From an uncultured virus (IMG/VR IMGVR_UViG_3300029705_003489) (Duplodnaviria > Heunggongvirae > Uroviricota > Caudoviricetes), in IMG/VR virus record IMGVR_UViG_3300029705_003489: a stretch of 20,000 nucleotides of DNA; one strand, 5' to 3'. Within the stretch, counting starts at the first letter, position 1, and each line of letters opens with the position of its first letter. Positions 195 through 20,000 of this stretch are shown here, piece after piece. The notes beneath the pieces are model-generated. The model was not told where the DNA came from and did not search any database. It saw only the letters and a program-made list of their open reading frames with translations. The position numbers and the translations under genes were made by a program.

Positions 195-223
195 TTGCTA
201 TCTTTGGAATAGTATTTTAATAT
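195..223 (+). promoter_or_regulatory. Putative sigma-A-type promoter for the LSR pair
   Basis: TTGCTA-N17-TAATAT upstream of the AGGAGG RBS at 241-246. Confidence 0.35.
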
Positions 224-254
224 GTCACTACCAAAAAGGAAGGAGGCAGATTGC

Positions 255-1745
255 ATGGAAATTCAAGTGATAAAACCGAGCCGGGATATTATAAAGAAGA
301 TGCGGGTATGCGCTTATGCAAGAGTATCCACATCTGATGATGAACAGGAAAATTCACTGGAGAACCAAATGGAACATTACATGGATTTAATTAAGAGCAA
401 TCCAATGTATGAGTATGTAAAAGTGTACTATGATTTTGGTATCTCCGGTTTTAAAGAAAAACGTTCCGGCTTCCAAGAAATGATGCAGGATGCACGGAAT
501 GGAAAAATAGATTTAATTATTGTAAAGTCCATATCGAGATTTGCACGAAATACCGTCACCGTTCTGAAGGCTGCACGAGAGCTTAAAGAACTGGGTGTCG
601 GTATTTTTTTTGAAATTCAAAACATCAATACACTGACAGAAGCAGGGGAATTGATGCTTACGATATTATCTGCATTTGCACAGGCAGAGAGTGACAACTA
701 CAGCCAACTGACTAGAATGGGTATTCAACGCAAGTATGAAAAGGGAGAACCGATTCGGAGGTTGGAACGCAGCTTTGGATACCGAAAGAATGAGTGTGGG
801 GAATATGAAAAAGAGCCTGCAGAGGCACGATGGATAAAGCGTATGTATGAAATGATTGCTGACGGGTATTCTCCGGCAGAAGTAAAACGCTATCTGAATG
901 ACAATGGAGTACGGACGGTTCAGGGAAAAGAATTCTTGGATTGTACGGTTATCCGCATTATTGAAAATGAAATTTACAAGGGTGATTTTGTTATGCATAA
1001 GCACTTTGTGAATGCAGACCGAAAAGAAGTGAGGAATAGGGGCGAAGTGGATTCTTGGTACATTCGTGATGACCATCAGCCTATCGTAAGCAGAAAACTT
1101 TGGCAGAAGGCACAGGATGCTTTGGCAGAGAAACGCGCCTATCTTGCGGAAGGCTCTGTGGTAGGAGAGAATACAGAAGAAATATACCCTTATAAAAATA
1201 AAATCTACTGCGCTACTTGTGGCCATCCGCTTTATCGCCGGGTGCATAGTTACGGAAACAGAGTAAATTGGGGATGCAGCGGGCAAAAGCGTTATAATAA
1301 AGAATTCTGTTCCGGCATTAACGTTCCGGATGCCGTTATCCGCTCTTGGGGAGAATTTGAAGGGAATATTTATATCAGCAAGGAAGAGGATTCTCTTGGG
1401 AAGGCTGAGTTTGCATTCCAAAAGGAAAGTGCATGGAAGAGGAAACACACCAAGAAAGAAATACCGGCCGTGCCTGCACTTAGCGAGGAGAATTATCCGT
1501 ATTGCAAGAAAATTTTTTGCAAGAAATGTGGCAGCAGACTTACCAGAACATTTAATACTTCGGGGCAAGTGAGATGGGCTTGCCTCGGTGCCACAAAAAA
1601 AGGAATTTCATTTTGCACCGGGGTGAGGGTTCCTGATGAAGTAGTCCGAACATGGAAATTTGAAACAGAAATACTAATTGAAGGAAAGGAAGAGAAAAAT
1701 GGCAAGAAAAGTTACAGTTATACCCGCAAAACAAGCCGGAAGTAA
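255..1745 (+). CDS. Large serine recombinase 1 (resolvase + recombinase domains + two tandem zinc ribbons)
   Basis: Catalytic YARVST motif, DFGISG, KSISRFARN, recombinase domain FGY...HQPIVS, and two CxxCG...WxC...C zinc ribbons. Start moved to ATG 255 because of the AGGAGG RBS. Confidence 0.93.
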   Translation: MEIQVIKPSRDIIKKMRVCAYARVSTSDDEQENSLENQMEHYMDLIKSNPMYEYVKVYYDFGISGFKEKRSGFQEMMQDARNGKIDLIIVKSISRFARNTVTVLKAARELKELGVGIFFEIQNINTLTEAGELMLTILSAFAQAESDNYSQLTRMGIQRKYEKGEPIRRLERSFGYRKNECGEYEKEPAEARWIKRMYEMIADGYSPAEVKRYLNDNGVRTVQGKEFLDCTVIRIIENEIYKGDFVMHKHFVNADRKEVRNRGEVDSWYIRDDHQPIVSRKLWQKAQDALAEKRAYLAEGSVVGENTEEIYPYKNKIYCATCGHPLYRRVHSYGNRVNWGCSGQKRYNKEFCSGINVPDAVIRSWGEFEGNIYISKEEDSLGKAEFAFQKESAWKRKHTKKEIPAVPALSEENYPYCKKIFCKKCGSRLTRTFNTSGQVRWACLGATKKGISFCTGVRVPDEVVRTWKFETEILIEGKEEKNGKKSYSYTRKTSRK

Positions 1746-3072
1746 AACTGGCAAGAAAGCAACTGAGGTAAGGAAAACCCGAGTGGCTGCATACTGTAGA
1801 GTCTCTACGGATGAGGATGAACAGTTAAATTCCTTTGAAAACCAAGTGGAATACTATACTCGATATATTACGGGAAATCCGGCATATGAATTGGTAGATA
1901 TTTATGCGGATGAAGGAATATCCGGTACGAACACAAGAAAGAGAAAAGAATTTCAACGCATGATTGCTGACTGCGAGGCGGGAAAAATTGATATGGTAAT
2001 TGTAAAATCGATTTCACGTTTTGCAAGAAACACGCAGGACTGCTTAATGTATTCACGACAGCTTAAAAATTTAGGAATAGGTATAATTTTTGAAAAGGAG
2101 AACATCAACACGCTAGATGCGAGTGGTGAACTCCTTTTTACTATTTTAAGCTCCCTCGCACAGGATGAGTCAAGAAACATTTCTGAAAACTGCAAGTGGG
2201 GAATCCGTAGCAAATTTCAAAAAGGAATACCGCACATCAATACCTTTAAATTCATGGGATATGACAAGGATAAAGAAGGGCGTTTGGTAATCAATGCAAA
2301 GGAAGCAAAATTGGTTAAAAGGATTTTTAAAGAATTTTTAGAGGGTTTCAATCCGGCAGATATAGCAAGGCGATTAAATGAAGAAGGAATTCCGGGAGTA
2401 ACCGGAAAGCCACAATGGAGCAGGCAGACGATACGTGGTATGCTGCAGCAGGAAAAATATATGGGTGACAGCATATTGCAGAAATGGGTAACCACGGATT
2501 ATCTGAACCATAGCCTACGGAAGAACAACGGAATAGTAGAGCAATATTATGTGGAAAAATCGCATCCAGCAATTATTGATAAGGAAACATGGACAGCGGT
2601 GCAGGAAGAATTTGAGCGCCGGGAGGCTTATTGCAAAGCTCATCATTTGGCTGCATACTCATACCGAGCTGACATAAATGCATTCAATAGCAAGGTTATT
2701 TGCGGAAAGTGCAATCTTGCCTTTGCTAGAAAATCATGGACCAGAAAAGGCTTTGTGGGATGGGAATGCAAGAGCGAGGATTTTGGCGGTTATGTAAAAG
2801 AAGAAACTTTAATGCAGGCTTTTATAATGGCATGGAATTATACCGTGAAAAACAGGGATAAATTCATGGGGCATTGGGAAGAACAGGCTGACGGAAAGGA
2901 ACCGCTTAAGAAAATCCGTGCAAAGCAGATGATGGAACTTACTAACGAAGGAACGATTACCACATTTTTGCCGGAACTGGTGCAGATGGTACTTGAGAAG
3001 GTTGTGGTGCATGGCAAGGAACACTTTACGGTTTGTTTCTTGGATGGCTCGGAAAGAGAAATTTTATTATAA
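1699..3072 (+). CDS. Large serine recombinase 2
   Basis: YCRVST, YADEGISGT, KSISRFARN, SLAQDESRNISEN, HPAII, shortened CGKC...WEC ribbon, C-terminal FLDGSE. ATG 1699 follows GAAAGGA and overlaps LSR1 by 47 nt. Confidence 0.93.
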   Translation: MARKVTVIPAKQAGSKTGKKATEVRKTRVAAYCRVSTDEDEQLNSFENQVEYYTRYITGNPAYELVDIYADEGISGTNTRKRKEFQRMIADCEAGKIDMVIVKSISRFARNTQDCLMYSRQLKNLGIGIIFEKENINTLDASGELLFTILSSLAQDESRNISENCKWGIRSKFQKGIPHINTFKFMGYDKDKEGRLVINAKEAKLVKRIFKEFLEGFNPADIARRLNEEGIPGVTGKPQWSRQTIRGMLQQEKYMGDSILQKWVTTDYLNHSLRKNNGIVEQYYVEKSHPAIIDKETWTAVQEEFERREAYCKAHHLAAYSYRADINAFNSKVICGKCNLAFARKSWTRKGFVGWECKSEDFGGYVKEETLMQAFIMAWNYTVKNRDKFMGHWEEQADGKEPLKKIRAKQMMELTNEGTITTFLPELVQMVLEKVVVHGKEHFTVCFLDGSEREILL

Positions 3073-3147: not shown

Positions 3148-4080
3148 TTATTCTGATGCAACGATTGAAGTCTCATCACTTTGGAACAGAGCAATCTGCT
3201 CGTTTTCATCCGGAATGGAGTCTGGCACTGGAACTTCTTCGACATCTTCTTTTTCTATTTTATCCTTTGCCTTTGCACCTTTATGGGAATACAATTTATT
3301 GAATTGGAGTGGTCGCTGGCATTTCTTGTTGTATGCGATGAGCATGGCTTCGGAATATCCGAGGGAGCCGGCACGGCGGTCTCTTGCAGTGCGGCTAAGT
3401 TCCTTTATGGAAAGGCGGCCAAGTTTTTCAATGAATGTACTGTCTTTTAACTCATCTCCGTAACAGTGAAGGAGTCTGGCAACACCGTTTATCATATTGG
3501 CACTGAAAGATTTCTGCTCACCTTCCCAAGTTCCGATGATAAGTCGAATGGAGTGATCAAGAATATGGTATCCATATTTTTCGTATACGCTTTCCAAAGT
3601 GGAAACCGCACAAATTCCACCGGGCTGAGCTTTGCCGGATACTACCATATCATAAGATTCGACCAGTGATTTTATAATAAGCTGTTTATTGTTTCCTGCT
3701 TCAATGTTTGCCATGAAAATCTCATATGGCTGTAGTGCTTTGGTATATTTCATCTGATTGGCAAAAATATCTGCTTCTTGCGTGTATTCCAAATCGTCAT
3801 AAATCATGCACCATACTGGGGTTTCACGAGAGCCGGATACTAATGCAATGATTTCTATGGTATGCTGTCCGTTAAATACATAGTTTACGTTATCTCTACG
3901 GCTGACCTTTACAGGATTGATTTGATATAAATCAAAATTGGCAGCAGCATTTTGTACGTGTTTTACGGAAACGTTACGCTGATAATCCTGATTGGACACA
4001 AGATTTTTAATGGGGATTAATTCATAATGTACTTGGGGGATAAATTGCTTTAAATATTCTTCATCTGTTGTTTCACTCAT
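3148..4080 (-). CDS. ParB/Srx-fold protein with DGQHR-like motif (DUF6551-like)
   Basis: N-terminal L...DYQR...NPVKVSRRDNVNYVFNGQHT matches the YQR...DGQH(R/T) pattern of ParB-like/DndB-type domains. GGAGG RBS before ATG 4080; start overlaps the upstream stop (ATGAGTGA). Confidence 0.7.
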   Translation of the reverse strand: MSETTDEEYLKQFIPQVHYELIPIKNLVSNQDYQRNVSVKHVQNAAANFDLYQINPVKVSRRDNVNYVFNGQHTIEIIALVSGSRETPVWCMIYDDLEYTQEADIFANQMKYTKALQPYEIFMANIEAGNNKQLIIKSLVESYDMVVSGKAQPGGICAVSTLESVYEKYGYHILDHSIRLIIGTWEGEQKSFSANMINGVARLLHCYGDELKDSTFIEKLGRLSIKELSRTARDRRAGSLGYSEAMLIAYNKKCQRPLQFNKLYSHKGAKAKDKIEKEDVEEVPVPDSIPDENEQIALFQSDETSIVASE

Positions 4081-5023
4081 GATATTCCTCCCGGATAATT
4101 TTTTGTAGTGTATTGATTTGATCTTCAAGTGCAGCTAATTGGTTATCTAATTTGTATAGGGCTTCTGTTGTAGCATCACCAAATTTTGCGAGTGACATGG
4201 TTCGTTTCATTGAACTAATCCACATCGGGATTGTTAAAGTGAGGCTAGATAATTCTGCATCAGGGTCATACTTTGGCATCTGCTTAATTACAGGCTTAGG
4301 TAAATTCCGGTTTTCCTTTTTGATACGTTCCTTATCTCGTTGTACGCTTTTCTGCATTTCAGTGGGAAGTAAGCGTTGCCCTTTGCCGTTTTTAAAACGT
4401 GTATGAATTACGCGGATTTCCTCGGCAGACAATTTACTTAGTTCCACAGTATTTGTATGCCGGATATGAAAATTTCCAAGTAAGATATCATCCACGATTT
4501 CTGGTGCTTTTTTATCGAGTTCATCCAGTGCTTCAGAATAAGTTTTATATTTACAGATAGAACCTTCGGACATAGGATAATACTTTTCGATTAGGGTAGC
4601 AGTAAGGTTTTTGGTGGATGTAAAATTAGGCCTGCGAAGTTCAGCAGGAGTATATTGATTCTGCACCGGGTATTTTTCATGAAATAACCGTTTTTGAGCA
4701 TTATATAATTTACCAACACAGTAATGCATTTGTTCTTCCACGAGTTCTGCATTTTTTAAGGACAATAGGCAAATGTGAGAGATGGCCTCATTACGGGAAA
4801 CAAAGTCTATTTCCTCGATGTGGAATGGTATGGATAACTTATGGTATAATCCGTAAAGCGTGAGTCCCTCAATAACAATTTTATTCCAAACAACGATAGG
4901 TTTTTGGTATGCTTCATATAGGATTTTACGCTCCAATTTTGCATATTCTTCCGGTGTGGCAGCAGGAGTAAGTTTGGCAAATTCTCTATCAATTATTAAG
5001 TTATAAAGATGTTTTTCATTCAT
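4073..5023 (-). CDS. Degenerate ParB-like N-terminal-domain protein
   Basis: IIDREFAKLTPAATPEEYAKLERKIL...KPIVVWNKIVIEGLTLY resembles IDPEF..L..EEY..LE..I...PIIVW...IDGHNRY, but the GHNR motif is replaced by GLTL. C-terminus looks coiled-coil. Confidence 0.6.
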   Translation of the reverse strand: MNEKHLYNLIIDREFAKLTPAATPEEYAKLERKILYEAYQKPIVVWNKIVIEGLTLYGLYHKLSIPFHIEEIDFVSRNEAISHICLLSLKNAELVEEQMHYCVGKLYNAQKRLFHEKYPVQNQYTPAELRRPNFTSTKNLTATLIEKYYPMSEGSICKYKTYSEALDELDKKAPEIVDDILLGNFHIRHTNTVELSKLSAEEIRVIHTRFKNGKGQRLLPTEMQKSVQRDKERIKKENRNLPKPVIKQMPKYDPDAELSSLTLTIPMWISSMKRTMSLAKFGDATTEALYKLDNQLAALEDQINTLQKIIREEYHE

Positions 5024-5026
5024 ATG

Positions 5027-5425
5027 TTATTCCTCAATATTTTCTTCTAGCAGAATGGAATCTGCCATACAAAATGTAACCAGTTTTTCAGCTTCTATTA
5101 AGCGTCCTTCGATGTGATAACAGTGTCCGTCCTTCCAGTTGAAACCATCGGCAATACTACGAAGTTTCAAGATAAGGTAGGTACTGTATAATTCACAGCA
5201 TTGTTTTCCACCGACCAATGACCACTTGATTTTTTCAGAATACATATCATTGGCACCGCAGCTCCGAAAGGCAAGAGTGGAAGTATTTGGGTTTACGAGA
5301 ATCTGTATGTATTTTGGATTGCCAAGGAGATGCAGTGTTGTTTTATGAATACGGATTCTGCATTTCTTTAGGTCCATTAGCAGAGAAGGACGGATTGAGG
5401 GTGAGTTGCTCATAAGGTTGTTCAT
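5027..5425 (-). CDS. Hypothetical protein, paralog of the LSR3 C-terminal domain
   Basis: YIQILVNP...LAFRSC...W....YHIEGRL...LVTF aligns by eye with 5343-6080 and the LSR3 C-terminus. GAGGA RBS before ATG 5425. Confidence 0.75.
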   Translation of the reverse strand: MNNLMSNSPSIRPSLLMDLKKCRIRIHKTTLHLLGNPKYIQILVNPNTSTLAFRSCGANDMYSEKIKWSLVGGKQCCELYSTYLILKLRSIADGFNWKDGHCYHIEGRLIEAEKLVTFCMADSILLEENIEE

Positions 5426-6080
5426 TGTTTGGTTCCTCACTTTCTGTTAGGGTGATTATTGCTTCTGGAGTGGTCTGTTGAGTATCAGCTTCTAAACCAA
5501 ATACAGCGTATCCATTAAAGAGATTAATCTGCATGGCGGCACGGTGTTCAGCCACTGGCACACCAAACTGATTTTTCCAATCCTCTGGATAGGCTGGGGT
5601 GCGGGCAGTGGATGTTTTTCCATCTTCTTTTACGGTACGTTTATAAATTTCCGGTGCATTTAAATCAAACACAAATAATAATTCATCACCGGACTTGATT
5701 AACTTACCCAATAATTTATAGCGGTAGTCAGGATTCCATTCCATAAGGGAAAGAACCTTTGCAAAAAACATTCTGCAAGTAATCTGCTTTGGAGAGCGTT
5801 TGTTGGTGGCAGAGCACCACCGGAAAGAATCTTTCTCATCTTCCTTACATGGACGAACGGCTAATTTCTTGTTTTCCGGGTTTACAAGAATCTGAACATA
5901 GTCAAATTCAGGAAGCTTTTTGATACATGCGGTGTTGACAGACACCTTGTAGTTATTAAAGGTAAATGATGGTTCATAAACATGTGCGAAAAATTCTCCT
6001 CGAACAACTTGGTAGCCTTCGTAGCTAAAGGCATCATCCTCGATGATTTCAATTTCATTTGTCATAGGGTCTCTACTCAT
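5343..6080 (-). CDS. Hypothetical recombinase-associated protein, paralog of the LSR3 C-terminal domain
   Basis: FSYEGYQVVRGEFF...YVQILVNPENKKLAVRPC...YRYKLLG...FVFDL...YPEDWKNQFG. GGAGG RBS before ATG 6080; start overlaps the LSR3 stop. Confidence 0.85.
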   Translation of the reverse strand: MSRDPMTNEIEIIEDDAFSYEGYQVVRGEFFAHVYEPSFTFNNYKVSVNTACIKKLPEFDYVQILVNPENKKLAVRPCKEDEKDSFRWCSATNKRSPKQITCRMFFAKVLSLMEWNPDYRYKLLGKLIKSGDELLFVFDLNAPEIYKRTVKEDGKTSTARTPAYPEDWKNQFGVPVAEHRAAMQINLFNGYAVFGLEADTQQTTPEAIITLTESEEPNNEQPYEQLTLNPSFSANGPKEMQNPYS

Positions 6081-7950
6081 TTTGTTCCTCCTGTCGTATT
6101 CCTTCAATTATGATTTCAATATTTCTTTCTAGTTCGTCCGGACTTGTGGTTTGGAGAGGATTTGGATTGAAGGTTGTTCCTTCATTTTGTGTATTCCAGT
6201 TTCCGGTTCTTGAAAATGTGGCTAATTCTTTGGCTTGAGACTGTCTGTAATAGTCATTGCCAAAGGAATGCATCCAGTTCTCAGGAAAAGCCCGGATGCT
6301 AGATTTTGTTCCTAGTGGCTTTATGTTTTCATCGAATGGTGGAAGAACAGTTTCTCCGTTTTCCTCCGTATCAATGGAAGTGTGGGGAATGAGAACTTCA
6401 ATGTCTGTTAAGTTAAAAACAATGACGGTTTCACCGGGACTCTGCATTTTGACTCCAATTATTCGGTATTTGCATTCGGTTTTCCAACCAAATAAATCGT
6501 ATAGATTCGGCAGAAAGGCCGCACCGGAAATTTGTCTTGGAATAAGTAAACCGTTGTGAAGTTTGGAACACTGGACAGCGTGCTTGTTTTCCTTCATGGA
6601 TGGTCGCAGAGCAAAAAAATGCTCACCGGGATGTACCAACATCTCAACATACTGGGTATCGAATTTTCTTACGCATTCGGTACTGAAATTGATGTGGTCA
6701 ATGGAAAAAGTGGCACATATTTTATTTGCAGTATCGAAGAATTGAGCTCTGGCAACTTCAAATCCACGTAAGTCAAAGTCACCAGTATTTCTTTCTACGG
6801 GTTTTAGCTTGGGCATCGCTAAGGCGTCATAAACACTTTCTGAGGCAAGCATATAATCACTGGCTTTAAAACCAGCCCAACGAGGATTGATGGAAACATA
6901 ACCTCGTAGGGCTCCCTGTGTAATAACATGGAGTTCAGGCAGCATTCCCTTGTTTCCATACTTCGCATTACTGATTAAGTGCTGCACGGCAATAAAATCA
7001 TCTCTGCTTATGATGGCCTCATGGTGATTACGCTGACGATATTGGTTACGGTCTTGACGGTTCTTTTTGGACTTATGGTCAAGGTAACTGGGAGTCCAAG
7101 TTTTACGTGCAAGTACATCACCACAATGTCTCTCATTTTGGAGGACACCAAGGACTGAACCGGGAGACCATTGCGTGTTTCCTTTCTTTGTTCTTCTGCC
7201 GAGTGTGGTCAGCGTATCTGCGATTTTTTGACAGGTATAACCGTATAGATACATGAAGAAGATGAGTCGGACGGTTTTTGCTTCCTCTTCATTGATAATC
7301 AAATTACCGTCTTCGTCTTGGTCATAACCAAGAAGTGGGGGAGTCAGAAAAATACCTCTACGAAAGCGCATCTCAACGGAAGCATTCATAATTTCACTTT
7401 TATTATGGCTTTCTTCCTGTGCCAAAGTAGAAATAAATGAGAGGCTCATTTCACTATTGGCATCTAATGTGTAGATGTTTTCCGTTTCAAAGAACACACC
7501 TATAGGTGGTTGCATGGCTGCAAGCTGTCGGACATATCCGATGCAGTCCAATACATTTCTTGCGAATCTTGACACACTCTTGGTAACGATTAAATCGATT
7601 TTTCCGGCACGGCAATCCGCAATCATGCGAACGAAAGAGTCCCGGTGCTGGAGGGATGTTCCAGAGATGCCTTCGTCTGCATAGATTTCAATAAGTTTCC
7701 ATCCGGGGTGTCGGCTGACAACATCTTGGTAGTGGTTCTTTTGAAGTTCGTAAGAGGAAGTCTGTCTTGGGTCATCGGTAGAAACTCTGGCATAGACTGC
7801 GACACGTTTCTCACGGTCATCTTCATAGAAATTGGTCTGGGGGAGAGCAGGAATGACATCCAACTCATCAGCATTTAGTCCCTTGTAACGTTCACGAATT
7901 TTTTCTTTTTGACTGGCTGCATTTCGAAGCTTTCCTTCATTCTCTTTCAT
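6073..7950 (-). CDS. Large serine recombinase 3 with atypical C-terminal domain (no zinc ribbon)
   Basis: YARVST, YADEGISGT, KSVSRFARN, LAQEESHNKS, LLGYD, HEAIIS. No CxxC ribbon follows; an unfamiliar ~250-aa C-terminal region takes its place. AGAAAGGAG RBS. Confidence 0.92.
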   Translation of the reverse strand: MKENEGKLRNAASQKEKIRERYKGLNADELDVIPALPQTNFYEDDREKRVAVYARVSTDDPRQTSSYELQKNHYQDVVSRHPGWKLIEIYADEGISGTSLQHRDSFVRMIADCRAGKIDLIVTKSVSRFARNVLDCIGYVRQLAAMQPPIGVFFETENIYTLDANSEMSLSFISTLAQEESHNKSEIMNASVEMRFRRGIFLTPPLLGYDQDEDGNLIINEEEAKTVRLIFFMYLYGYTCQKIADTLTTLGRRTKKGNTQWSPGSVLGVLQNERHCGDVLARKTWTPSYLDHKSKKNRQDRNQYRQRNHHEAIISRDDFIAVQHLISNAKYGNKGMLPELHVITQGALRGYVSINPRWAGFKASDYMLASESVYDALAMPKLKPVERNTGDFDLRGFEVARAQFFDTANKICATFSIDHINFSTECVRKFDTQYVEMLVHPGEHFFALRPSMKENKHAVQCSKLHNGLLIPRQISGAAFLPNLYDLFGWKTECKYRIIGVKMQSPGETVIVFNLTDIEVLIPHTSIDTEENGETVLPPFDENIKPLGTKSSIRAFPENWMHSFGNDYYRQSQAKELATFSRTGNWNTQNEGTTFNPNPLQTTSPDELERNIEIIIEGIRQEEQNE

Positions 7951-8100: not shown

Positions 8101-8445
8101 TTATTGTTCTTTTGCTTTTCGGAGAGCATCCTTCATATCACGAACCATTTTCGTGATGGCATGGGTTTCGTCAGCAGTGCAGTCAGATAATATATCGCTG
8201 ATTTCTCGACTTTGGATGGCACTCACTTGTGGAATATCTGTACGGAGCAACCAGTCAGCAGAAACTTGAAGCGCTTCTGTCAAGCGCATAAAGATATCTA
8301 AACCGATATTTGTTTTTCCGTTTTCAATATCGCTAATATGAGTAATGGAAACTTGGGCCTTTTCTGCCAAATCAGCTTGACTGAGCCTTTGTTGTTTTCT
8401 TGCTTCACGTATGCGATAACCAATGTCTTTTATTTTGCTGTCCAT
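8101..8445 (-). CDS. XRE-family helix-turn-helix regulator
   Basis: IGYRIREARKQQRLSQADLAEKAQVSITHISDIENG is an HTH_3-type pattern. GAGGTG RBS before ATG 8445. Confidence 0.9.
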   Translation of the reverse strand: MDSKIKDIGYRIREARKQQRLSQADLAEKAQVSITHISDIENGKTNIGLDIFMRLTEALQVSADWLLRTDIPQVSAIQSREISDILSDCTADETHAITKMVRDMKDALRKAKEQ

Positions 8446-8456
8446 AGAACACCTCA

Positions 8457-8539
8457 TCGTTTATCGTGTATGTTTTTTGTTATTTTATACACAATAGACG
8501 AAGAATAAAATAGTCTACGGTTGAAGTTATCGCCTATCG
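8457..8539. promoter_or_regulatory. Putative operator region between divergent XRE genes
   Basis: Imperfect inverted repeat TCGTTTATCGTGTAT (8457-8471) / ATACACAATAGACGA (8487-8501), plus related 9-mers AGTCTACGG (8512) and CGCCTATCG (8531). Confidence 0.5.
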
Positions 8540-8583
8540 GCTATATATTTAGCAAGAAAATTTTCAAAGGAGGTAACTTTTTT

Positions 8584-8946
8584 ATGTCAGTGAATTACAA
8601 AATCATTGGTAAACGAGTTAAGGAGGTGCGAAAAAGAAAACAGCTTTCACAGGCAGAATTAGCTGAAATGTCAAATTTATCTACACAATATGTAAGTCAG
8701 ATTGAGACGGCAAAAAAACAAGCCAGCCTGCAGTCGTTGGTAAGCATATCTAAAGCGTTGGAGATTTCACTTGATGAATTGCTGGCCGGTAATCAGATAA
8801 ATCGTCCTACAGAGTACATAAAGGAAGTAGATGATGTGTTCCGAGACTGCAGCAGATTTGAGAAAAGAGTCCTGTATGAAGTGATGAATGAAATCAAACG
8901 TATTTTACGTGAAAATGAAAGTCTGGTTGAGAAAAAAGAGTCATAA
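8584..8946 (+). CDS. XRE-family helix-turn-helix regulator
   Basis: IGKRVKEVRKRKQLSQAELAEMSNLSTQYVSQIETA. AAGGAGGT RBS before ATG 8584. Confidence 0.9.
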   Translation: MSVNYKIIGKRVKEVRKRKQLSQAELAEMSNLSTQYVSQIETAKKQASLQSLVSISKALEISLDELLAGNQINRPTEYIKEVDDVFRDCSRFEKRVLYEVMNEIKRILRENESLVEKKES

Positions 8947-11789: not shown

Positions 11790-12188
11790 ATGGAAAATAC
11801 GCAGATAAAATTAATAGGTTCATCTTTATCGACACGTACAGCGACTATTTTGTGGAGAAACGGAATCTCATATTTACATGAACTCACTAATTACTGTGAA
11901 GAAACATTAGTGGAGTTACGGAATATTGGTCCCAATGCAGTGGAAGAAATTAAGGAGTTTTGTTTCAAATATGGGGTACATATCTTTAACCGAGAAGCAC
12001 TACTTTGTGAGGAGATTGGAATTGAGTTGACTCCGGCAGAGTATGCAAAGGTCTTCAAGTATGGTATATCTGATAAACAGGATTTGTTTGATACAGATGG
12101 TGTTTTACTGGAACGCGAGTTTGGTGCAAATTCGGTTCTGTGCAAAAAACTAAAAAAAATAAAATTGCATATGTATGAAGGACTTTGA
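11790..12188 (+). CDS. Stand-alone RNA polymerase alpha-subunit C-terminal-domain-like (HhH) protein
   Basis: LSTRTATILWRNGISYLHELTNYCEETLVELRNIGPNAVEEIKE matches the alpha-CTD pattern LSVR..N.L.RAGI..V.EL.....E.L...RNLG.KSLEEIK. Confidence 0.75.
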   Translation: MENTQIKLIGSSLSTRTATILWRNGISYLHELTNYCEETLVELRNIGPNAVEEIKEFCFKYGVHIFNREALLCEEIGIELTPAEYAKVFKYGISDKQDLFDTDGVLLEREFGANSVLCKKLKKIKLHMYEGL

Positions 12189-13142: not shown

Positions 13143-15275
13143 ATGAAAAAAGGAAAGAAACTTTGGTGGATATTATTTGGTTTTACAGCAGTAATGACAC
13201 TATTTTCATTTTCAATAACACCGGATTATGAGGCAAGTGCAAAGGATTTATTTTTGTATCGCTTTAGTGGCGCTCTTTTATTTGGTGTATTTGCAATAGC
13301 TTTTCTCATTCAGACCGATATAGGCGGAATAAAGCAAAAGTTAGGCTTAGAATCCATAAAGAAGAAAGTATTGTTTTGGATTGCTACGGTTGCAGTAAGC
13401 ATAACAGCTTTTGGCGTTGTTGATGGTATGACAAGTGAGGAATTTCGGAATGCAAGAATGTCGCTTACTGTTACGCCGGCTCCAACCGCTGAACCTACGA
13501 TTACAGAAATAGCAGTAAACGTTGATAAAGCGATGCCTACGGATGTTCCAGAACCTACAGGAACGGTAACACCAACGGAAGTTCCTACTCCGATTAGTGA
13601 GCCGACACCAACCAGTGTTGTGAAGGTTGCTACACCAACTCCGACACTTGCTCCGGAAGAGACCGATATTGATGGTTATGTCTTTAATTTTGATAATGCA
13701 GTATTCGAAGTAAACGGATTGGAAATTACTTTCTATTCTGTAGAATTTGAAAAAGAGCTTTCCGTGGGTGGCTATTCTACGATATTTGAATATTCTGTAA
13801 AGAATACTGGTACTACAGAAGCAACTTTAAAATTTGCTACTACAAATCAGTTATATTTTAGTGATGGGGATTTAGCAGTACTTGCAGTACAGGCAATAAA
13901 TTCTTCTAAGCAAGGATATGAAACCAGTTACCGTTTACAACCGGGAGAAGAAACAGAAAAGACTAAAATTCTTTTGACGGCAACTTCCAGTACTACGGAT
14001 GCACGCATTGATGGTATTGATTATCCTAAGATTACTATCGAAAATATTATGTCCACGGAGCCTGTAACGATAGGAATTACTTTTACAGGCTGGGTAAATG
14101 ATAATCAAGAATCTACAAAAGTAACTTTCAATGTCAATGGTGGAGTAGAAGTAAGTCCGATAGATACACCAACTCCTACACCGGAACCTACCAATACACC
14201 AACACCAATGCCAACGGTGGCTCCAACGAATACTCCGGTTCCAGAACCGGAAGTGTCATTAGAAGATAGCTGGTTCTCGGTTATATATTTTAATGTGGGC
14301 CAAGGAGATGCTGCATTGGTTGAATGTGACGGTCATTATATGTTAATTGATGGTGGAACTTCGTCATATTCCAGTACATTATATTCCTACTTGAAAGAAC
14401 AGAAAATTGATACTTTGGATATTGTGGTTGCGTCTCATGCACATAATGACCATGTAGGTGGACTTGCAGGTGCTTTAAATTATGCTAAGGCTGATTTGGT
14501 ATTGTGTCCGGTAACGGAATACGACACGGATGAGTTCCGAGCATTTAAGAAATATGCAGAGAAGAATGGTCCCGGTATTACAGTACCGGAAGTCGGAGAT
14601 ACATATCGGCTAAGTAATGCTACGGTTACAATCAATGGTGTAAATGCCGGTGCTGATAATGATACATCGATTGTTATGACTGTTGAATACAGAGGAGAAA
14701 AATTTGTATTCACAGGTGATGCAGAGTATGCTGCAGAAGTGGCTGCGGTAAAGAATATCGAAGGTCCTGTAATGGCATTAAAGGTAAGCCATCACGGAAG
14801 TGATACATCATCTACATATCAGTTTTTACGTGAAGTTGCTCCGATTTATGCTGTAATTTCATGTGGTTATGGAAATGAGTATGGCCATCCAACAGAAACG
14901 GTGTTGAGCCGACTTGATGATGCAGATGCTGAAATATTAAGAACTGATTTACAGGGAGATATTTATTTCGAATATACCGAAGGTGAGTGGTATTACGGAT
15001 ATGAAACGGAAGTGGATTATGCACTTATTTTAACACCGGGTAGTTCATTTGTGGCTGATACAGGAGACACTGATACAGAAACCACTGTCGATAGAAACAA
15101 CACATCTACTTCTGGTGCAGATTATATCGGCAATGCAAACAGTATGGTATTTCATTATCCGGGATGTTCCAGTGTAAAGCGGATGAAGGAATCTAATAAG
15201 CGCTATTACGAAAATGTAACAAGAGAAGATATGATAAATAAGGGTTATAAGCCATGTGGTAATTGTAATCCGTAA
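13143..15275 (+). CDS. Membrane-anchored ComEC/Rec2-type MBL-fold hydrolase with C-terminal Ada-like Zn-binding domain
   Basis: Three N-terminal TM segments and two PT-rich linkers. MBL motifs NVGQGD, IDGG, HAHNDH, TGD, HHGS, YGHP, RTD..G. C-terminal YIGN...FH.PGC...GYKPCGNCNP. Confidence 0.88.
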   Translation: MKKGKKLWWILFGFTAVMTLFSFSITPDYEASAKDLFLYRFSGALLFGVFAIAFLIQTDIGGIKQKLGLESIKKKVLFWIATVAVSITAFGVVDGMTSEEFRNARMSLTVTPAPTAEPTITEIAVNVDKAMPTDVPEPTGTVTPTEVPTPISEPTPTSVVKVATPTPTLAPEETDIDGYVFNFDNAVFEVNGLEITFYSVEFEKELSVGGYSTIFEYSVKNTGTTEATLKFATTNQLYFSDGDLAVLAVQAINSSKQGYETSYRLQPGEETEKTKILLTATSSTTDARIDGIDYPKITIENIMSTEPVTIGITFTGWVNDNQESTKVTFNVNGGVEVSPIDTPTPTPEPTNTPTPMPTVAPTNTPVPEPEVSLEDSWFSVIYFNVGQGDAALVECDGHYMLIDGGTSSYSSTLYSYLKEQKIDTLDIVVASHAHNDHVGGLAGALNYAKADLVLCPVTEYDTDEFRAFKKYAEKNGPGITVPEVGDTYRLSNATVTINGVNAGADNDTSIVMTVEYRGEKFVFTGDAEYAAEVAAVKNIEGPVMALKVSHHGSDTSSTYQFLREVAPIYAVISCGYGNEYGHPTETVLSRLDDADAEILRTDLQGDIYFEYTEGEWYYGYETEVDYALILTPGSSFVADTGDTDTETTVDRNNTSTSGADYIGNANSMVFHYPGCSSVKRMKESNKRYYENVTREDMINKGYKPCGNCNP
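14161..14250 (+). repeat. Pro/Thr-rich low-complexity linker (TPTPTPEPTNTPTP...); a second one lies at ~13470-13660
   Basis: Translated sequence shows degenerate PT repeats. Confidence 0.7.
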
Positions 15276-16309: not shown

Positions 16310-16325
16310 GAATTAGGCGGGCTTG
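16310..16325 (+). other. Predicted attachment-site junction within comEC
   Basis: In-frame TAG-GCG-GGC-TTG-CAT-ATT: a stop codon sits immediately before (A)GLHIS, where ComEC normally has HxxA(I/V)SGLH. Confidence 0.7.
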
Positions 16326-18026
16326 CATATTTCGATGCTGTGCATGGGATTGTTCCGGATGCTTCGGAAAATGACGGTACCGCTTCGGTTATCTGTGGCG
16401 ATAGCTTCGATATTTTTAATGTTCTATGTAATCTTCACCGGAGCAAGTACTTCGTCGGTCAGAGCGGCAATTATGTGCCTGGTTACTTTTGGTGCCGTGC
16501 TACTGCGAAGGAGCTACGATTTGCTTTCTTCTCTTTCTTTTGCTGCTATTGTAGTTACTGTGAGATGGCCTGCAGAAGTAGACTCAGCCGGCTTTCTTCT
16601 TTCTTTTGGGGCAGTGCTTGGGATAGCTTTGGCGCAGGAGATAGAATATGTGGTGCTTCAGACGCGGGAAGGAAAACGTCCGTGGTGGTGTATATTTTTG
16701 TTCAGCGGCATGATACAGTGTGTTACTATGCCGGTATCTCTTTGGTTTTTCTATGAATTATCGCCATACGGAATCTTCTTAAATCTTTTGGTAATCCCCT
16801 TGGTTTCCCTGATTATCGGCGGAGGTCTGATATCGGCAGTGTTGGGACTTTGGTGGCCGGTGCCTGCAAAGCTTCCGGTGGGCGGCACTTATCTTTTACT
16901 GGAATTTTATGAATGGCTGTGTGAGGTGACCCAGAAGCTTCCTTTTTCATTTGTATTGCTGGGGCAGCCGGCGGTGTGGCAGCTGGTGGTTTATTATGGC
17001 TTGTTGGCAGGGGTGCTTTGGTGTTTTTTCCGAAATGTCGCCGGAGAGAAGATATCCGGTTCTGCTACATCAGAGTCGTCTGTAACTGCTGTTCAAAAAA
17101 AGGAGGTTATACTGGCAGCCGGTCTGATTTGCACGATAGGAATATTATTTTTTCCGTCAAATAGGAACACAGAACTTTTATTTATGGACGTTTCCCAGGG
17201 AGATGGTGCGTTAATTACGACGCCAAACGGAACCGTGATTTTGTCGGACTGTGGCAGCAGCGATGTGCTTCAGTTGACAGAGTATCGTCTGTCTCCGGTG
17301 CTGAAATACAACGGAATTCTTCTTGTGGACATGGCGGTAGTTTCCCACCTGGATGCGGACCATATCAGTGGTATCAGGGAACTTTTACGTGCAATGCCGG
17401 TATACGAAGGAGAAGTTGTTTTTGCCACCGGATATGCGGGTGCTGTGGGTGTTAAAGAGCTTGTTTTACCAAAGGTTTCAGAAAAATCAGAAGCATATTT
17501 GGAATTGGAGGCTTTGGCAAGTTCAAAGAATGTGAATGTCCGTTATATAGAAGCAGGTGAGATGCTATACCGGGAAAAAGAATTTCTCATGGAATGTCTG
17601 CATCCGTATCACGCGAAGGAATCGGACAATGACGCATCTCTTGTATTTCTTTTGCAGACACCAAAGCTTGTTGCCTGGCTGACCGGGGATGCAGGTATTG
17701 CACCGGAGACAGAGATTATTTCACATTTGGGAGCGGTGAATATGTCTGCTTTGCGTAATGGAAAGCTTGTGTTGCTTAAGGTTGGTCATCATGGTTCAAA
17801 AACGTCCTCAAGCCGGGAATTTATTGAGTATGTACAGCCGGATGTAGCGGTCATTTCCTGTGGTTATCACAATTCCTACGGGCATCCTCATGCCGAAGTT
17901 GTGAATCGGCTTGCTGCCTCCGGTGCCGAGGTATTCCGTACGGATTTGCAAGGGGCAGTTCTTGTGGAGGAGAAAGAGCGCAGGGGTGTTGTGGTGCACG
18001 GATGGAGGAAACTTGTTCGGGAGTAG
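16317..18026 (+). pseudogene. comEC: 3' portion of interrupted DNA-uptake gene comEC (rest of Competence domain + MBL domain)
   Basis: GLHIS, SSVRAAIM, GFLLSFGAV, NLLVIP, DVSQGDG, HLDADH, TGD, GHHGS, YGHP, RTD..G. No upstream half of the Competence domain and no clear RBS; syntenic with holA. Confidence 0.88.
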
Positions 18027-18046
18027 AGCGCTATAAGGAGATACTG

Positions 18047-18127
18047 CTTATTTTTGGGTTGGATGCCCGACCAGGCGGTGAAAGTGTGGGCCTGGACGGG
18101 CAGAAATCCAACCAATTAGAAAATAAG
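18047..18127. other. GC-rich long stem-loop preceding the array
   Basis: CTTATTTT...TTGGGTTGGAT GCCCG A CCAGGC -loop- GCCTGG A CGGGC AGAA ATCCAACCAA...AAAATAAG. Confidence 0.65.
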
Positions 18128-18459
18128 AACATATAGTTGGGATGACGTTCAAAATCAAAAACCAATCAAACAAGAAAGTATGTAGGTAAATTGGATTTCG
18201 ATTTTTTGTAATTCCAATGAAATGAGGATAATTGCTGTTTTGTTGGCCTTACTTATTTTATAAAATACCAACAGAAGATGGAAAAAAAGACAAATATTGG
18301 TTTATGTAATTTTATAAAAACCAACAAAGTGAGAAAGAAAAGATTTAAGTTGGTTTTTTGAATTACAATGGAGACCAACTAATTTGAATAAAGTGAGAAT
18401 TTGTTGGTTAATAAAAATTTTATGTACCAATAATTTTATGGTAATAAGCAATAAGTTGG
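18108..18459. repeat. Cryptic periodic array of seven CCAA-N25-TTGG units (period 52-54 bp)
   Basis: CCAA at 18108, 18162, 18214, 18268, 18321, 18375, 18427. TTGG at 18137, 18191, 18243, 18297, 18350, 18404, 18456. The offset is exactly 29 in all seven. Confidence 0.9.
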
Positions 18460-18485
18460 ATTTTGGAAACAGAAAGGACTGTAGA

Positions 18486-19304
18486 ATGAAAAGATTAGAA
18501 TATATTTTGAAAGAAGAGTTAGCACAATTGAATCATGTAGTAGAAATGACTAAACAAAGGCTTAATCATGTGCCGGAAGGTCACCTGAGAGTCAGAGAAT
18601 GGAATGGTAAGACGGAATATTACTATAGAAATAGTGAGTCGAAAGATACCAATGAAAGCAGGAGTAATGGTAGATATTTAAGAAAGCAGGAAAAGGTATT
18701 GGCAAAAAGTATTGCACAGCGGGATTATGATACTATGGTGATGAATAAAGCAAAGGAAAGAATTTATGCGATTGAAAAATTTCTTAGAACGTATGAAAGA
18801 ACAAGTTTAAAACAATTATATCAAGATACAATTCCGGGACGGCGAAAACTAATTGAGGCAGAAATAATCTCCGATGAAGAATACATCAGACAATGGCAAG
18901 ATGTTAGTTACAAAGGGAAAAGTTTTGATGATGAGGAAAATGAAATTATAACAGAGCGAGGTGAACGTGTTCGTTCAAAATCGGAGAAAATTATTGCAGA
19001 TAAATTGCATGCATTGAGAATCCCGTATCGTTATGAATATCCGCTTACTCTGGTAGGAGGACTCAGGGTATATCCGGACTTTACAATTCTGAAAATGCCG
19101 GAGAAGGAAGAAGTATACTTGGAACATTTTGGTATGATGGATGATGCAGACTATGCGGAAAATGCCTTACATAAGCTAAATACATTTGAGAAAAACAAGA
19201 TATATCTGGGAGTGAATTTATTTATTACTCACGAAACAAGCAAAAATCCGCTGAATACCAGGGCATTGGATGGCATGCTGAGGAAATTATTTTGTGAGGA
19301 ATAG
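18486..19304 (+). CDS. Putative PD-(D/E)XK-superfamily (Vsr/DUF559-like) nuclease with N-terminal helical region
   Basis: C-terminal GERVRSKSEKIIADKL...IPYRYEYPL...YPDFTI...YLEHFGMMD. AGAAAGGA RBS before ATG 18486; the ORF-track start at 18384 lies inside the array. Confidence 0.75.
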   Translation: MKRLEYILKEELAQLNHVVEMTKQRLNHVPEGHLRVREWNGKTEYYYRNSESKDTNESRSNGRYLRKQEKVLAKSIAQRDYDTMVMNKAKERIYAIEKFLRTYERTSLKQLYQDTIPGRRKLIEAEIISDEEYIRQWQDVSYKGKSFDDEENEIITERGERVRSKSEKIIADKLHALRIPYRYEYPLTLVGGLRVYPDFTILKMPEKEEVYLEHFGMMDDADYAENALHKLNTFEKNKIYLGVNLFITHETSKNPLNTRALDGMLRKLFCEE

Positions 19305-19306
19305 CG

Positions 19307-19335
19307 TGTACATTTTTGTGAAAATGTGGTATTCT
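19307..19335 (+). promoter_or_regulatory. Putative holA promoter
   Basis: TGTACA-N17-TATTCT with an extended -10 TG. Confidence 0.45.
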
Positions 19336-19417
19336 AAAAATGAATCGTATTAATTATGTATTGTTCTTTTTCGAAAATTTTGAGTGACAAAGTGACTGTT
19401 TGTCAAGGAGCCATCCA

Positions 19418-20000
19418 ATGAAAACTATAAAGGAAGATATCAAAAATAGAGAGTTTAAGCGGGTTTACCTTCTGTACGGAACGGAAGAATACTTAAAACG
19501 CCTCTATAAAAACAAACTGAAAGAGGCGGTATTGCAGGATTCTGACGCCATGAATATGGCGGAGTATGCCGGTAAAGGCATTGATGAAAAAGAGGTAAGA
19601 GAGTTTGCTGATACATTGCCGTTTTTTGCGGACTATCATTTGCTGATTTTGGAGAATACCGGCTGGTTTAAGAACTCTACAGACTTTACGGACTATGTAC
19701 CGGAGCTTCCGGACACGGCAGTGCTTGTGTTTGTGGAAACCGAGGTAGATAAGCGGAGCCGTATGTATAAGGCGGTCAAGGAGCATGGCTACGTTTGTGA
19801 GATGAACGGTATGACCGAACAGGAACTGAAAATGTGGGTAGCTTCCCTGCTAAAGCGGGAAGAACGTAAAATTACGGAATCAACCATTGAATTCCTTTTG
19901 GAGCAGGTGGGCACCGATATGGCAAAGCTTCAGAATGAGCTGGAAAAGCTGGTGTGCTATACCATGGGCAGAGATGTAGTAACTGTAGAAGACATCAGAC
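19418..20000 (+). CDS. holA: DNA polymerase III subunit delta, partial (runs off the window)
   Basis: Own translation: MKTIKEDIKNREFKRVYLLYGTEEYLK...ADTLPFFADYHLLILE...VDKRSRMYK...GTDMAKLQNELEKLVCY. AAGGAG RBS; follows comEC as is usual in Firmicutes. Confidence 0.93.
   Translation, partial: MKTIKEDIKNREFKRVYLLYGTEEYLKRLYKNKLKEAVLQDSDAMNMAEYAGKGIDEKEVREFADTLPFFADYHLLILENTGWFKNSTDFTDYVPELPDTAVLVFVETEVDKRSRMYKAVKEHGYVCEMNGMTEQELKMWVASLLKREERKITESTIEFLLEQVGTDMAKLQNELEKLVCYTMGRDVVTVEDIR

Follow-up and report, generated by a model that had tools for sequence, protein, structure and literature searches.

A phage large serine recombinase whose zinc ribbon and coiled coil appear to be replaced by a domain recurring in two adjacent genes

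Introduction

How could a large serine recombinase (LSR) choose its target sites and keep its reaction one-way without the domain to which both properties are ascribed? The question is raised by LSR3, a 625-residue LSR encoded on the minus strand (positions 6073–7950) of a 20,000-nucleotide stretch of DNA, hereafter the window, from an uncultured member of the Caudoviricetes (IMG/VR record IMGVR_UViG_3300029705_003489). The principal tools for putting large DNA into genomes include the serine integrases. According to the accepted model, site choice and the one-way course of the reaction depend on a zinc-ribbon domain with its coiled coil, which read the outer part of the attachment (att) half-site and control synapsis and direction. 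An earlier note on this DNA, made from its letters alone, proposed that LSR3 has neither and that the domain found in their place, here termed X, occurs twice more, in the small genes ORF254 and ORF137 directly downstream. The computational analysis reported here agrees with this description and leads to a tentative reading that we rate just short of even: LSR3 may be a serine integrase in which X has replaced zinc ribbon and coiled coil, and on which ORF254, and usually ORF137, would dock as co-expressed subunits supplying the missing functions in trans.

The kind of enzyme, a serine recombinase, is known. What appears to be new, judged by sequences and structure models, is that LSR3 fails two defining LSR features and that it has paralogous partners. 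No account of the LSR3 architecture or of the module was found in the literature covered, subscription journals and supplements lying outside the scope of the search; in the accessible part of the paper on the Heliusvirales (PMC11283538), the words "recombinase" and "integrase" occur 0 times. A large natural clade without both features, always accompanied by free copies of X, would show that a second solution to the problem of site choice and directionality exists. It would also open a first way to the function of a protein family that is very common, but unannotated, in phages of gut Lachnospiraceae and that some databases label "integrase" despite its having no catalytic domain, and it has a bearing on the entry of Ca. 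Heliusvirales phages into the competence gene comEC and on their exit from it.

Domain architecture of LSR3

The N-terminal part of LSR3 follows the plan of the canonical LSRs of phiC31, Bxb1, A118/LI, SPbeta (SprA) and TP901-1, in which a catalytic domain with the serine motif precedes a Recombinase domain. The Resolvase catalytic domain (PF00239, 8.9e-26; residues 50–199, positions 7354–7803, minus strand) contains the serine motif RVSTDD, which is near-invariant across 76 aligned members of the LSR3 family. The Recombinase domain (PF07508, 4.2e-24; residues 221–327, positions 6970–7290, minus strand) is matched over profile positions 1–100 of 102. These are the only two Pfam domains found in LSR3, and residues 42–330 match the integrase family PHROG 95 (2.9e-89). 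Unlike the canonical enzymes, LSR3 carries a conserved extension of 49 residues before the catalytic domain (residues 1–49, positions 7804–7950), the consensus of which includes QKEKIRxRYKG...DELDVIPA.

The C-terminal part departs from the canonical plan. Where canonical LSRs have a zinc-ribbon domain with an inserted coiled coil, LSR3 has an unrelated domain of about 185 residues. Zn_ribbon_recom (PF13408) has no match in LSR3 at E ≤ 0.01, whereas LSR1, another recombinase of the window, is matched at 6.7e-13 in two stretches in the same scan; nor does PF13408 occur among the 120 listed matches of the LSR3 family. In residues 328–625, four cysteines occur singly and there is no CxxC pair. The C-terminal region (residues 325–625) was modeled by AlphaFold with 76 aligned relatives; the model has a mean predicted local distance difference test score (pLDDT) of 74.8 and consists of a conserved hairpin and helix (~338–371), a low-confidence linker, a beta-rich domain, a poorly modeled stretch and a terminal helix of 21 residues. 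This C-terminal helix is the longest one in the model, which contains no coiled-coil hairpin. Profile, cysteine pattern and model thus bear out the proposal that LSR3 is without zinc ribbon and coiled coil.

Three features can be delimited in this region, all encoded on the minus strand. Between the Recombinase domain and X lies a strongly conserved hairpin-plus-helix motif of about 40 residues (~332–371, positions 6838–6957), defined by alignment and model. Across 15 diverse members, 13 of its columns are invariant (from G8 to A45 in the numbering of the C-terminal alignment), and it is modeled with a pLDDT of 79–90 (strands 16–18 and 28–29, helix 39–47 in model numbering). The motif may be what is left of the beginning of a zinc ribbon domain. 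Domain X itself (residues ~392–575, positions 6226–6777) includes a conserved P-x-x-W-x-x-x-F-G motif and was delimited by BLASTP, hhalign, model and alignment; searches of Pfam, NCBIfam and PHROG returned no match for it. The third feature, an amphipathic C-terminal helix (~604–624, positions 6079–6141), corresponds to helix 280–300 of the model and to a conserved pattern in the alignment.

The architecture is widespread. Relatives of the C-terminal part of LSR3 fall into at least 290 clusters at 90% identity, mostly of ~620–635 residues and with Resolvase and Recombinase as their only domains. More distant LSRs with an X resembling that of ORF254 also exist, for example P0392 with 602 residues. 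Two forms that combine Resolvase and X (P0371 and P0391), each known from one member or contig, look like deletion derivatives and were set aside.

Homology of the three copies of X

The three reading frames described in the earlier note are all present on the minus strand. The open frame of ORF254 spans positions 5343–6107; the protein of 245 residues starts at the ATG at 6080 (5343–6080), as does its database form, P0001, and the start of the gene overlaps the end of LSR3. It comprises a free-standing, basic X (residues ~18–185), recognized by BLASTP, hhalign and a model with a pLDDT of 85, followed by an acidic disordered tail. ORF137 (5027–5440) amounts to a minimal, likewise basic X core by BLASTP and hhalign, without the N-terminal segment of X and without the PxxWxxxFG motif.

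That the C-terminus of LSR3, ORF254 and ORF137 are homologous, as had been proposed, is agreed upon by single-sequence and profile comparisons. In BLASTP, LSR3 392–564 aligns with ORF254 27–182 (E 1e-18, 26% identity), LSR3 433–533 with ORF137 (E 2e-4) and ORF254 with ORF137 (E 3e-7). Family alignments were built from 56 relatives of ORF254, 111 C-terminal regions of the LSR3 type and 25 relatives of ORF137. Compared pairwise by hhalign, the ORF254 family matches the LSR3 C-terminal family with a probability of 100% (E 1.4e-40, 192 columns) and the ORF137 family with 98.2% (E 3.9e-14, 108 columns); the match between LSR3 C-terminus and ORF137 reaches 98.0% (E 2.8e-13, 110 columns). The residues conserved in the ORF254 family—the N...C of the first helix, W115, Y121, G125 and a C-terminal F-G—recur in LSR3, and ORF137 retains the W/Y/G triad.

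The copies differ in charge. The median isoelectric point of the X core is 9.07 in both the ORF254 and the ORF137 family, and X of LSR3 is near neutral at 6.4. Such charges point to the free paralogues, and not to the X of LSR3, as the copies that would touch DNA.

ORF254 relatives number 1,888 among 90%-identity clusters of 139–445 residues. Without a length limit, 50%-identity representatives include at least 1,518, of which 181 score below 1e-30. Clade size stands at no fewer than 290 (90% identity) clusters for the enzyme and 1,518 (50% identity) for the small protein. Apart from odd chimeras, these relatives have no precomputed Pfam domain, and a few are named "integrase" by their source though they have no catalytic domain. 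ORF254, ORF137 and ORF316, the next gene of the array, had no family match in Pfam, NCBIfam, PHROG or PADLOC, and the clusters that ORF254 found in the ESM Atlas were all either unnamed or called "putative integrase". Among PDB sequences, the matches of ORF254 did not exceed chance level (a protease was the best, at E 0.011), and neither the ORF254 family profile nor ORF316 found any. Fusions of X to a tape-measure protein, GATase, CysS and TPR (P0367, P0379, P0305 and P0039) look like gene-call or assembly chimeras and were left unused.

Gene order and linkage

LSR3, ORF254 and ORF137 overlap and are co-oriented, and the tight array continues with ORF316 (4073–5023) and a DUF6551 gene (3148–4128), all on the minus strand. 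ORF316 has no Pfam match and is probably ParB N-terminal-like; this is a lead from the ESM Atlas, where 20 of 30 feature neighbors contain ParB_N (PF02195). The DUF6551 protein (PF20188, 7.1e-33) is ParB/DGQHR-like, of the ParB/Srx fold. In the accessible part of a preprint (10.1101/2025.10.10.680097), phage DUF6551 proteins of the ParB-CTPase fold are reported to bind nucleoside triphosphates.

Linkage was surveyed in 48 genome loci collected through ORF254 and in 80 viral loci collected through the C-terminal alignment of LSR3 (the best 80 of 172), with reading frames classified by hidden Markov models. These loci are interrelated and many are near-identical, so the counts that follow are not independent. 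With the C-terminal sequence of LSR3 alone as query, the viral contigs yielded just the identical record; the other viral loci came from the alignment-based scan. An LSR3-type gene lies directly upstream of ORF254 in 45 of the 46 testable genome loci, the sole miss (L047) being a decayed copy with both genes frameshifted; conversely, a gene of the ORF254 type directly follows LSR3 in all 79 testable viral loci. The small genes do, then, co-occur with this type of LSR, as the earlier note would require. The ORF137 type is present at 78/79 viral loci and, by the position rule, at 43/47 genome loci; it is truly absent from two of the latter (L044 and L048), and two more (L039 and L047) contain it but fail the rule. 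ORF316 was found in 44/44 genome and 75/76 viral loci, and DUF6551 in 38/38 and 72/73, respectively. A single IMG/VR contig (L135, 4999–9761) accounts for the viral misses of ORF137, ORF316 and DUF6551. It represents a natural minimal set, in which LSR3 and an ORF254-type gene are directly followed by a convergent LSR pair. The order LSR3–ORF254–ORF137–ORF316–DUF6551 is almost invariant.

A predicted contact between ORF254 and LSR3

The earlier note further supposed that the copies of X form hetero-oligomers. A complex model of LSR3 379–625 with ORF254 10–200 gave ipSAE interface scores of 0.72, 0.76 and 0.77, as against 0.00 for the best of three controls, with at least 87% of contacts shared between runs and a partner pLDDT of at least 74. 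In the calibration of the tool, 116 of 157 solved complexes and 2 of 215 mismatched pairs reach the mark, figures that hold only roughly here because our own alignments were supplied. The predicted interface involves residues 392–407, 490–503 and 519–573 of LSR3, with contacts at the N-terminal segment of X (392–407) and around the PxxWxxxFG motif, and on ORF254 the beta3–beta4 hairpin (63–87) together with residues just past the core (183–198). The supposition is therefore upheld in part: a contact between ORF254 and the X of LSR3 is modeled, but it may reflect a general X–X dimer, since the two are paralogues. P0257, in which an LSR-type X and an ORF254-type X lie within a single frame, fits a physical association of the two types; it is one gene call.

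In the mechanism that we tentatively favor, LSR3 would be the catalytic subunit of an unusual multi-subunit phage serine integrase. Its catalytic and Recombinase domains are normal; after them, the beta-rich X would substitute for the zinc-ribbon domain and coiled coil. ORF254 and ORF137, made from the same operon, would dock on the near-neutral X of LSR3 through X–X contacts and supply in trans additional DNA contacts at the att site, protein–protein contacts deciding which sites are paired, or both; ORF316 and DUF6551, presumably of ParB fold, would be further members of the operon. A bolder version holds that, in a clade of serine integrases widespread among abundant phages of the human gut, the reading of att sites and the control of synapsis have passed from the enzyme to two free subunits paralogous to X, giving a three-protein integrase that achieves directionality without a coiled coil or a classical recombination directionality factor (RDF) and whose target choice might change by exchange of a small subunit. 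This version appears rather doubtful to us.

The predicted contact would also fit a role of ORF254, ORF137 or both as regulators by mimicry, acting as directionality factors or inhibitors. X–X contacts between LSR3 subunits would then play the part of the coiled coil, and a free X would cap these surfaces and switch or block the reaction. The model places ORF254 on the X of LSR3, and paralogy means that the same surface could serve LSR3–LSR3 contacts; ORF254 moreover bears an acidic disordered tail. Known RDFs (gp3, gp47, SprB and Orf7) are small phage proteins that bind the C-terminal part of their integrase, and ORF254 is likewise predicted to sit on the C-terminal domain of LSR3; for the SPbeta integrase and its RDF, structures are available. 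By way of analogy, truncated transposase fragments inhibit transposition. To our knowledge, however, no known RDF is paralogous to any domain of the integrase it serves, and the two are usually expressed separately, whereas the partners considered here are paralogues of X encoded by genes that overlap LSR3. The overlap and common orientation suggest that the proteins are made together, unlike a switch needed at induction only. Because the genes are so tightly packed and overlapping, a separately expressed directionality switch is disfavored, and we regard regulation by mimicry as unlikely.

Joint use of side-by-side gene products in recombination has a precedent in CcrA and CcrB of SCCmec, and the window itself holds such an overlapping pair in LSR1 and LSR2. 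In contrast to ORF254 and ORF137, which are without a catalytic domain, CcrA and CcrB are both full recombinases.

The fold of X

What kind of domain X might be was approached through its predicted shape. The ORF254 model has a pLDDT of 85 overall and above 90 over residues 11–180. Its first half shows a beta-beta-alpha-beta-beta order that is also seen in the LSR3 model, and the element order of the beta-rich domain of LSR3 is the same as in ORF254. A Foldseek search of the ORF254 model against the PDB yielded nothing at E ≤ 0.001; the sliding clamps in its top rows were discarded at a template modeling (TM) score of ~0.1. In an exhaustive VIA search of 48,161 chains, the best match of ORF254 was MraZ (1n0e_A; Z 3.6, root-mean-square deviation 3.5 over 86 residues). 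Its 34 rows also include B3 DNA-binding domains from plants, three in number (Z 2.2–2.6). The independent LSR3 model placed the same MraZ chain first again (Z 2.5, deviation 4.3 over 96 residues) as one of only two chains with Z ≥ 2, no solved integrase chain being listed at that level. Both MraZ values lie below the noise guide of the tool itself, and that MraZ tops both lists says just that it is the nearest solved shape.

Sequence profiles do not point in the same direction. X, whole or in halves, was matched to MraZ and AbrB alignments by hhalign with probabilities of 0.1–0.4%, a comparison of limited power, as the alignments consisted of 19 MraZ and 19 AbrB-type sequences from related genomes and the control of MraZ against AbrB itself reached 31% (E 5e-4). 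The X proteins have no Pfam match to PF04014 or PF02381 (AbrB/MraZ), and the two halves of X show no similarity to each other by hhalign, no internal repeat being detected. X resembles the swapped-hairpin barrels of AbrB, MazE and MraZ and the pseudobarrels of B3 and EcoRII-N in its beta-beta-alpha-beta-beta order, with MraZ ranked highest, but is unlike them in its low Z-scores and in the missing Pfam and profile likeness. For the earlier suggestion of an AbrB/MraZ-like barrel, there is a weak likeness in shape, and no similarity at the profile level was seen.

In the BFVD database, small uncharacterized proteins of 112–146 residues from unrelated phages share the X core of the ORF254 model with a Foldseek probability of 1.00; among them are Gp105 of Lactococcus phage KSY1 (TM score 0.58 by target) and proteins of Bacillus phage Mgbh1 and Klebsiella phage FBKp24. 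Given these matches, the fold of the X core is not confined to recombinase operons.

The three copies might accordingly be independent DNA-binding domains that arose by duplication and have no mutual contact, ORF254 and ORF137 playing an architectural or regulatory part, Xis- or repressor-like, at nearby sites. Such a view would accommodate the basic cores of the two small proteins, the stand-alone X-like proteins of unrelated phages, virulent ones included, and the MraZ and plant B3 DNA-binding domains among the weak fold neighbors. It sits poorly with a complex model that passes its controls, with a linkage between ORF254 and LSR3-type genes that is near-perfect in both directions, and with the X of LSR3 itself, which is not basic. 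We consider it quite improbable.

Position of LSR3 at insertion junctions

Whether LSR3 is the integrase of this prophage is best judged from where the gene lies. It is found on the side of the prophage that faces the junction with comEC, co-oriented with a helix-turn-helix (HTH) regulator. The end of a prophage near the host junction is the usual position of a phage integrase gene, and canonical LSR genes likewise lie at a prophage end beside regulators, their insertion interrupting a conserved host gene. In viral loci L153, L158, L163 and L167, a comEC fragment with the same break point occurs 1.9–2.9 kb upstream of LSR3, and 21 viral contigs end 1.59–1.63 kb upstream of it.

A second setting is provided by 26 genome loci (L009–L034) from Blautia, Dorea, Coprococcus, Anaerostipes and others, which share a block of 7.2–7.5 kb that is 87–99% identical. 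The block extends from ~1.9 kb upstream of LSR3 to ~0.45 kb past DUF6551 and contains two or three small regulators, LSR3, the ORF254- and ORF137-type copies of X (X and X'), ORF316 and DUF6551 (for example, L011:4141–11400). At its end lies, always at the same point, a tadA/cpaF-like pilus ATPase gene that is only 55–77% identical between hosts. In islands of this tadA type, a precise junction, shared by 21 loci from different species, is found ~460 bp from the 3′ end of the module. One genome (G028, C1:457485–477000), in which an LSR3 unit abuts such a site-specific insertion in the ATPase gene, yielded no large serine recombinase besides the LSR3-type gene: of its 2 Resolvase hits genome-wide, the other is a frame of 204 residues. 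The tadA-type island of ~20 kb also carries variable cargo, such as an MmeI-type restriction-modification gene in L011.

From its genomic position, LSR3 would be the enzyme acting at comEC. The same loci can be read otherwise, namely that LSR3 is not the integrase of this prophage, that LSR1/LSR2 in the phage or tyrosine recombinases in the island carry out integration, and that the ~7-kb block of HTH regulator, LSR3, X, X' and two ParB-fold genes is a separate travelling module: a mobile unit nested in another, a system for resolution or inversion, or a maintenance module centered on the ParB-fold proteins. The block is always accompanied by other recombinases, the LSR pair in phages and a Tn554-like trio in tadA-type islands; it is discrete, has a recurrent left edge (L011:4141) and is common to otherwise different islands, and the two ParB-fold genes belong to its operon. 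On the other hand, LSR3 sits where an integrase gene classically does, beside the host junction and HTH regulators, and in tadA-type islands the 3′ end of the module keeps a constant distance from the junction. A repeat search of the window recovered only coding homology between LSR2 and LSR3, with no inverted or direct repeats that might serve as substrates of a separate system. A separate module seems to us unlikely.

Several of these observations weigh against our preferred reading of LSR3 as an integrase assisted by ORF254 and ORF137. The LSR1/LSR2 pair stands beside the module in the window and in 12 of the 14 testable viral loci and could be the real comEC integrase, and the Tn554-like block at the other end of the tadA-type island (TnpV, DUF6262 and three tyrosine recombinases) could drive insertion there. 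The surveyed loci are related or near-identical, so that the linkage counts overstate independence. In the complex model, the chains are paralogues; its passing score may only reflect a general X–X (homo)dimer, and the calibration is rough. Finally, with MraZ at Z 3.6/2.5 as the nearest solved fold and no AbrB/MraZ profile similarity, binding of DNA by X is inferred, and the same is true for its paralogues and for any role in directionality.

The prophage and its neighboring genes

The window represents a prophage of the Ca. Heliusvirales type sitting in comEC. It covers the right-hand 16 kb of the prophage, the left junction lying beyond it. The junction on the attR side was placed at 16312–16320, at the codons of the ISGLHIS motif of ComEC, by alignment with the intact comEC of the nearest genome, G001 (L108), an 845-residue frame with 95% identity. 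The severed 3′ part of comEC follows on the plus strand (16323–18026) and matches Pfam Competence from profile position 31 and then Lactamase_B. A break at the conserved ISGLHIS-coding stretch recurs in loci L035–L038 and in the four viral loci with a comEC fragment named above. In a contig of sequencing run X7, comEC is uninterrupted, and the contig diverges from the window before 16320. Among the contigs of the sequencing runs compared with the window, no excision or attP joint was found.

The assignment to the Ca. Heliusvirales was made by the recombinase module and its gene order, both of which are as in GenBank records filed under that name. Relatives of ORF254 were found in 19 GenBank phage records, 16 of them of the PV0364xx series. 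All four records of this series that were inspected are labeled Ca. Heliusvirales and have the gene order LSR3–X–X'–ORF316–DUF6551. In PV036411 and PV036442, a convergent LSR pair and then an endolysin come directly after DUF6551; PV036411, viewed whole, has tail, head and replication genes beyond the endolysin. The other two have extra genes before those annotated "DNA invertase" or "integrase", and the stretch shown carries no endolysin annotation.

LSR1 (222–1745) and LSR2 (1678–3072) form an overlapping pair of canonical LSRs on the plus strand (222–3072), convergent on the LSR3 operon, with Zn_ribbon_recom present in LSR1 and weak in LSR2 according to Pfam. Their overlap amounts to 68 bases, and LSR1 contains two separate zinc-ribbon stretches (PF13408), that is, a duplicated C...C region near its C-terminus. 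A similar pair was found in the great majority of testable viral loci (the 12/14 noted above) but in only 6/34 genome loci. Just upstream of LSR1, a gene ends at window position 57; its counterparts in L035 are a holin and an amidase. On the other side of LSR3 lies a divergent pair of HTH_3 regulators recognized by Pfam, at 8101–8457 (minus strand, co-oriented with LSR3) and 8521–8946 (plus strand), and HTH_3 homologues are present upstream of LSR3 in most loci.

Summed over the contigs of X1 and X3, word depth is ~18–25 in the phage part (1–16000), ~15 near the junction and ~6–15, mostly 6–12, in the host flank (16676–20000), with the proviso that word depth is not copy number. The higher depth over the phage part may hint at free phage or at a phage with several hosts.

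Extra genes, 8 kb in all, separate the regulators from the comEC junction in the window. One of them (13143–15275) encodes a protein of 710 residues with a metallo-beta-lactamase domain at residues 385–575, which matches the corresponding parts of the PADLOC defense proteins LmuA (1.1e-20) and Avs1a (2.3e-16); it may be a prophage-borne defense or moron gene. PF03118, the C-terminal domain of the RNA polymerase alpha subunit, is matched at 1.4e-07 by a phage protein of 132 residues (11790–12188).

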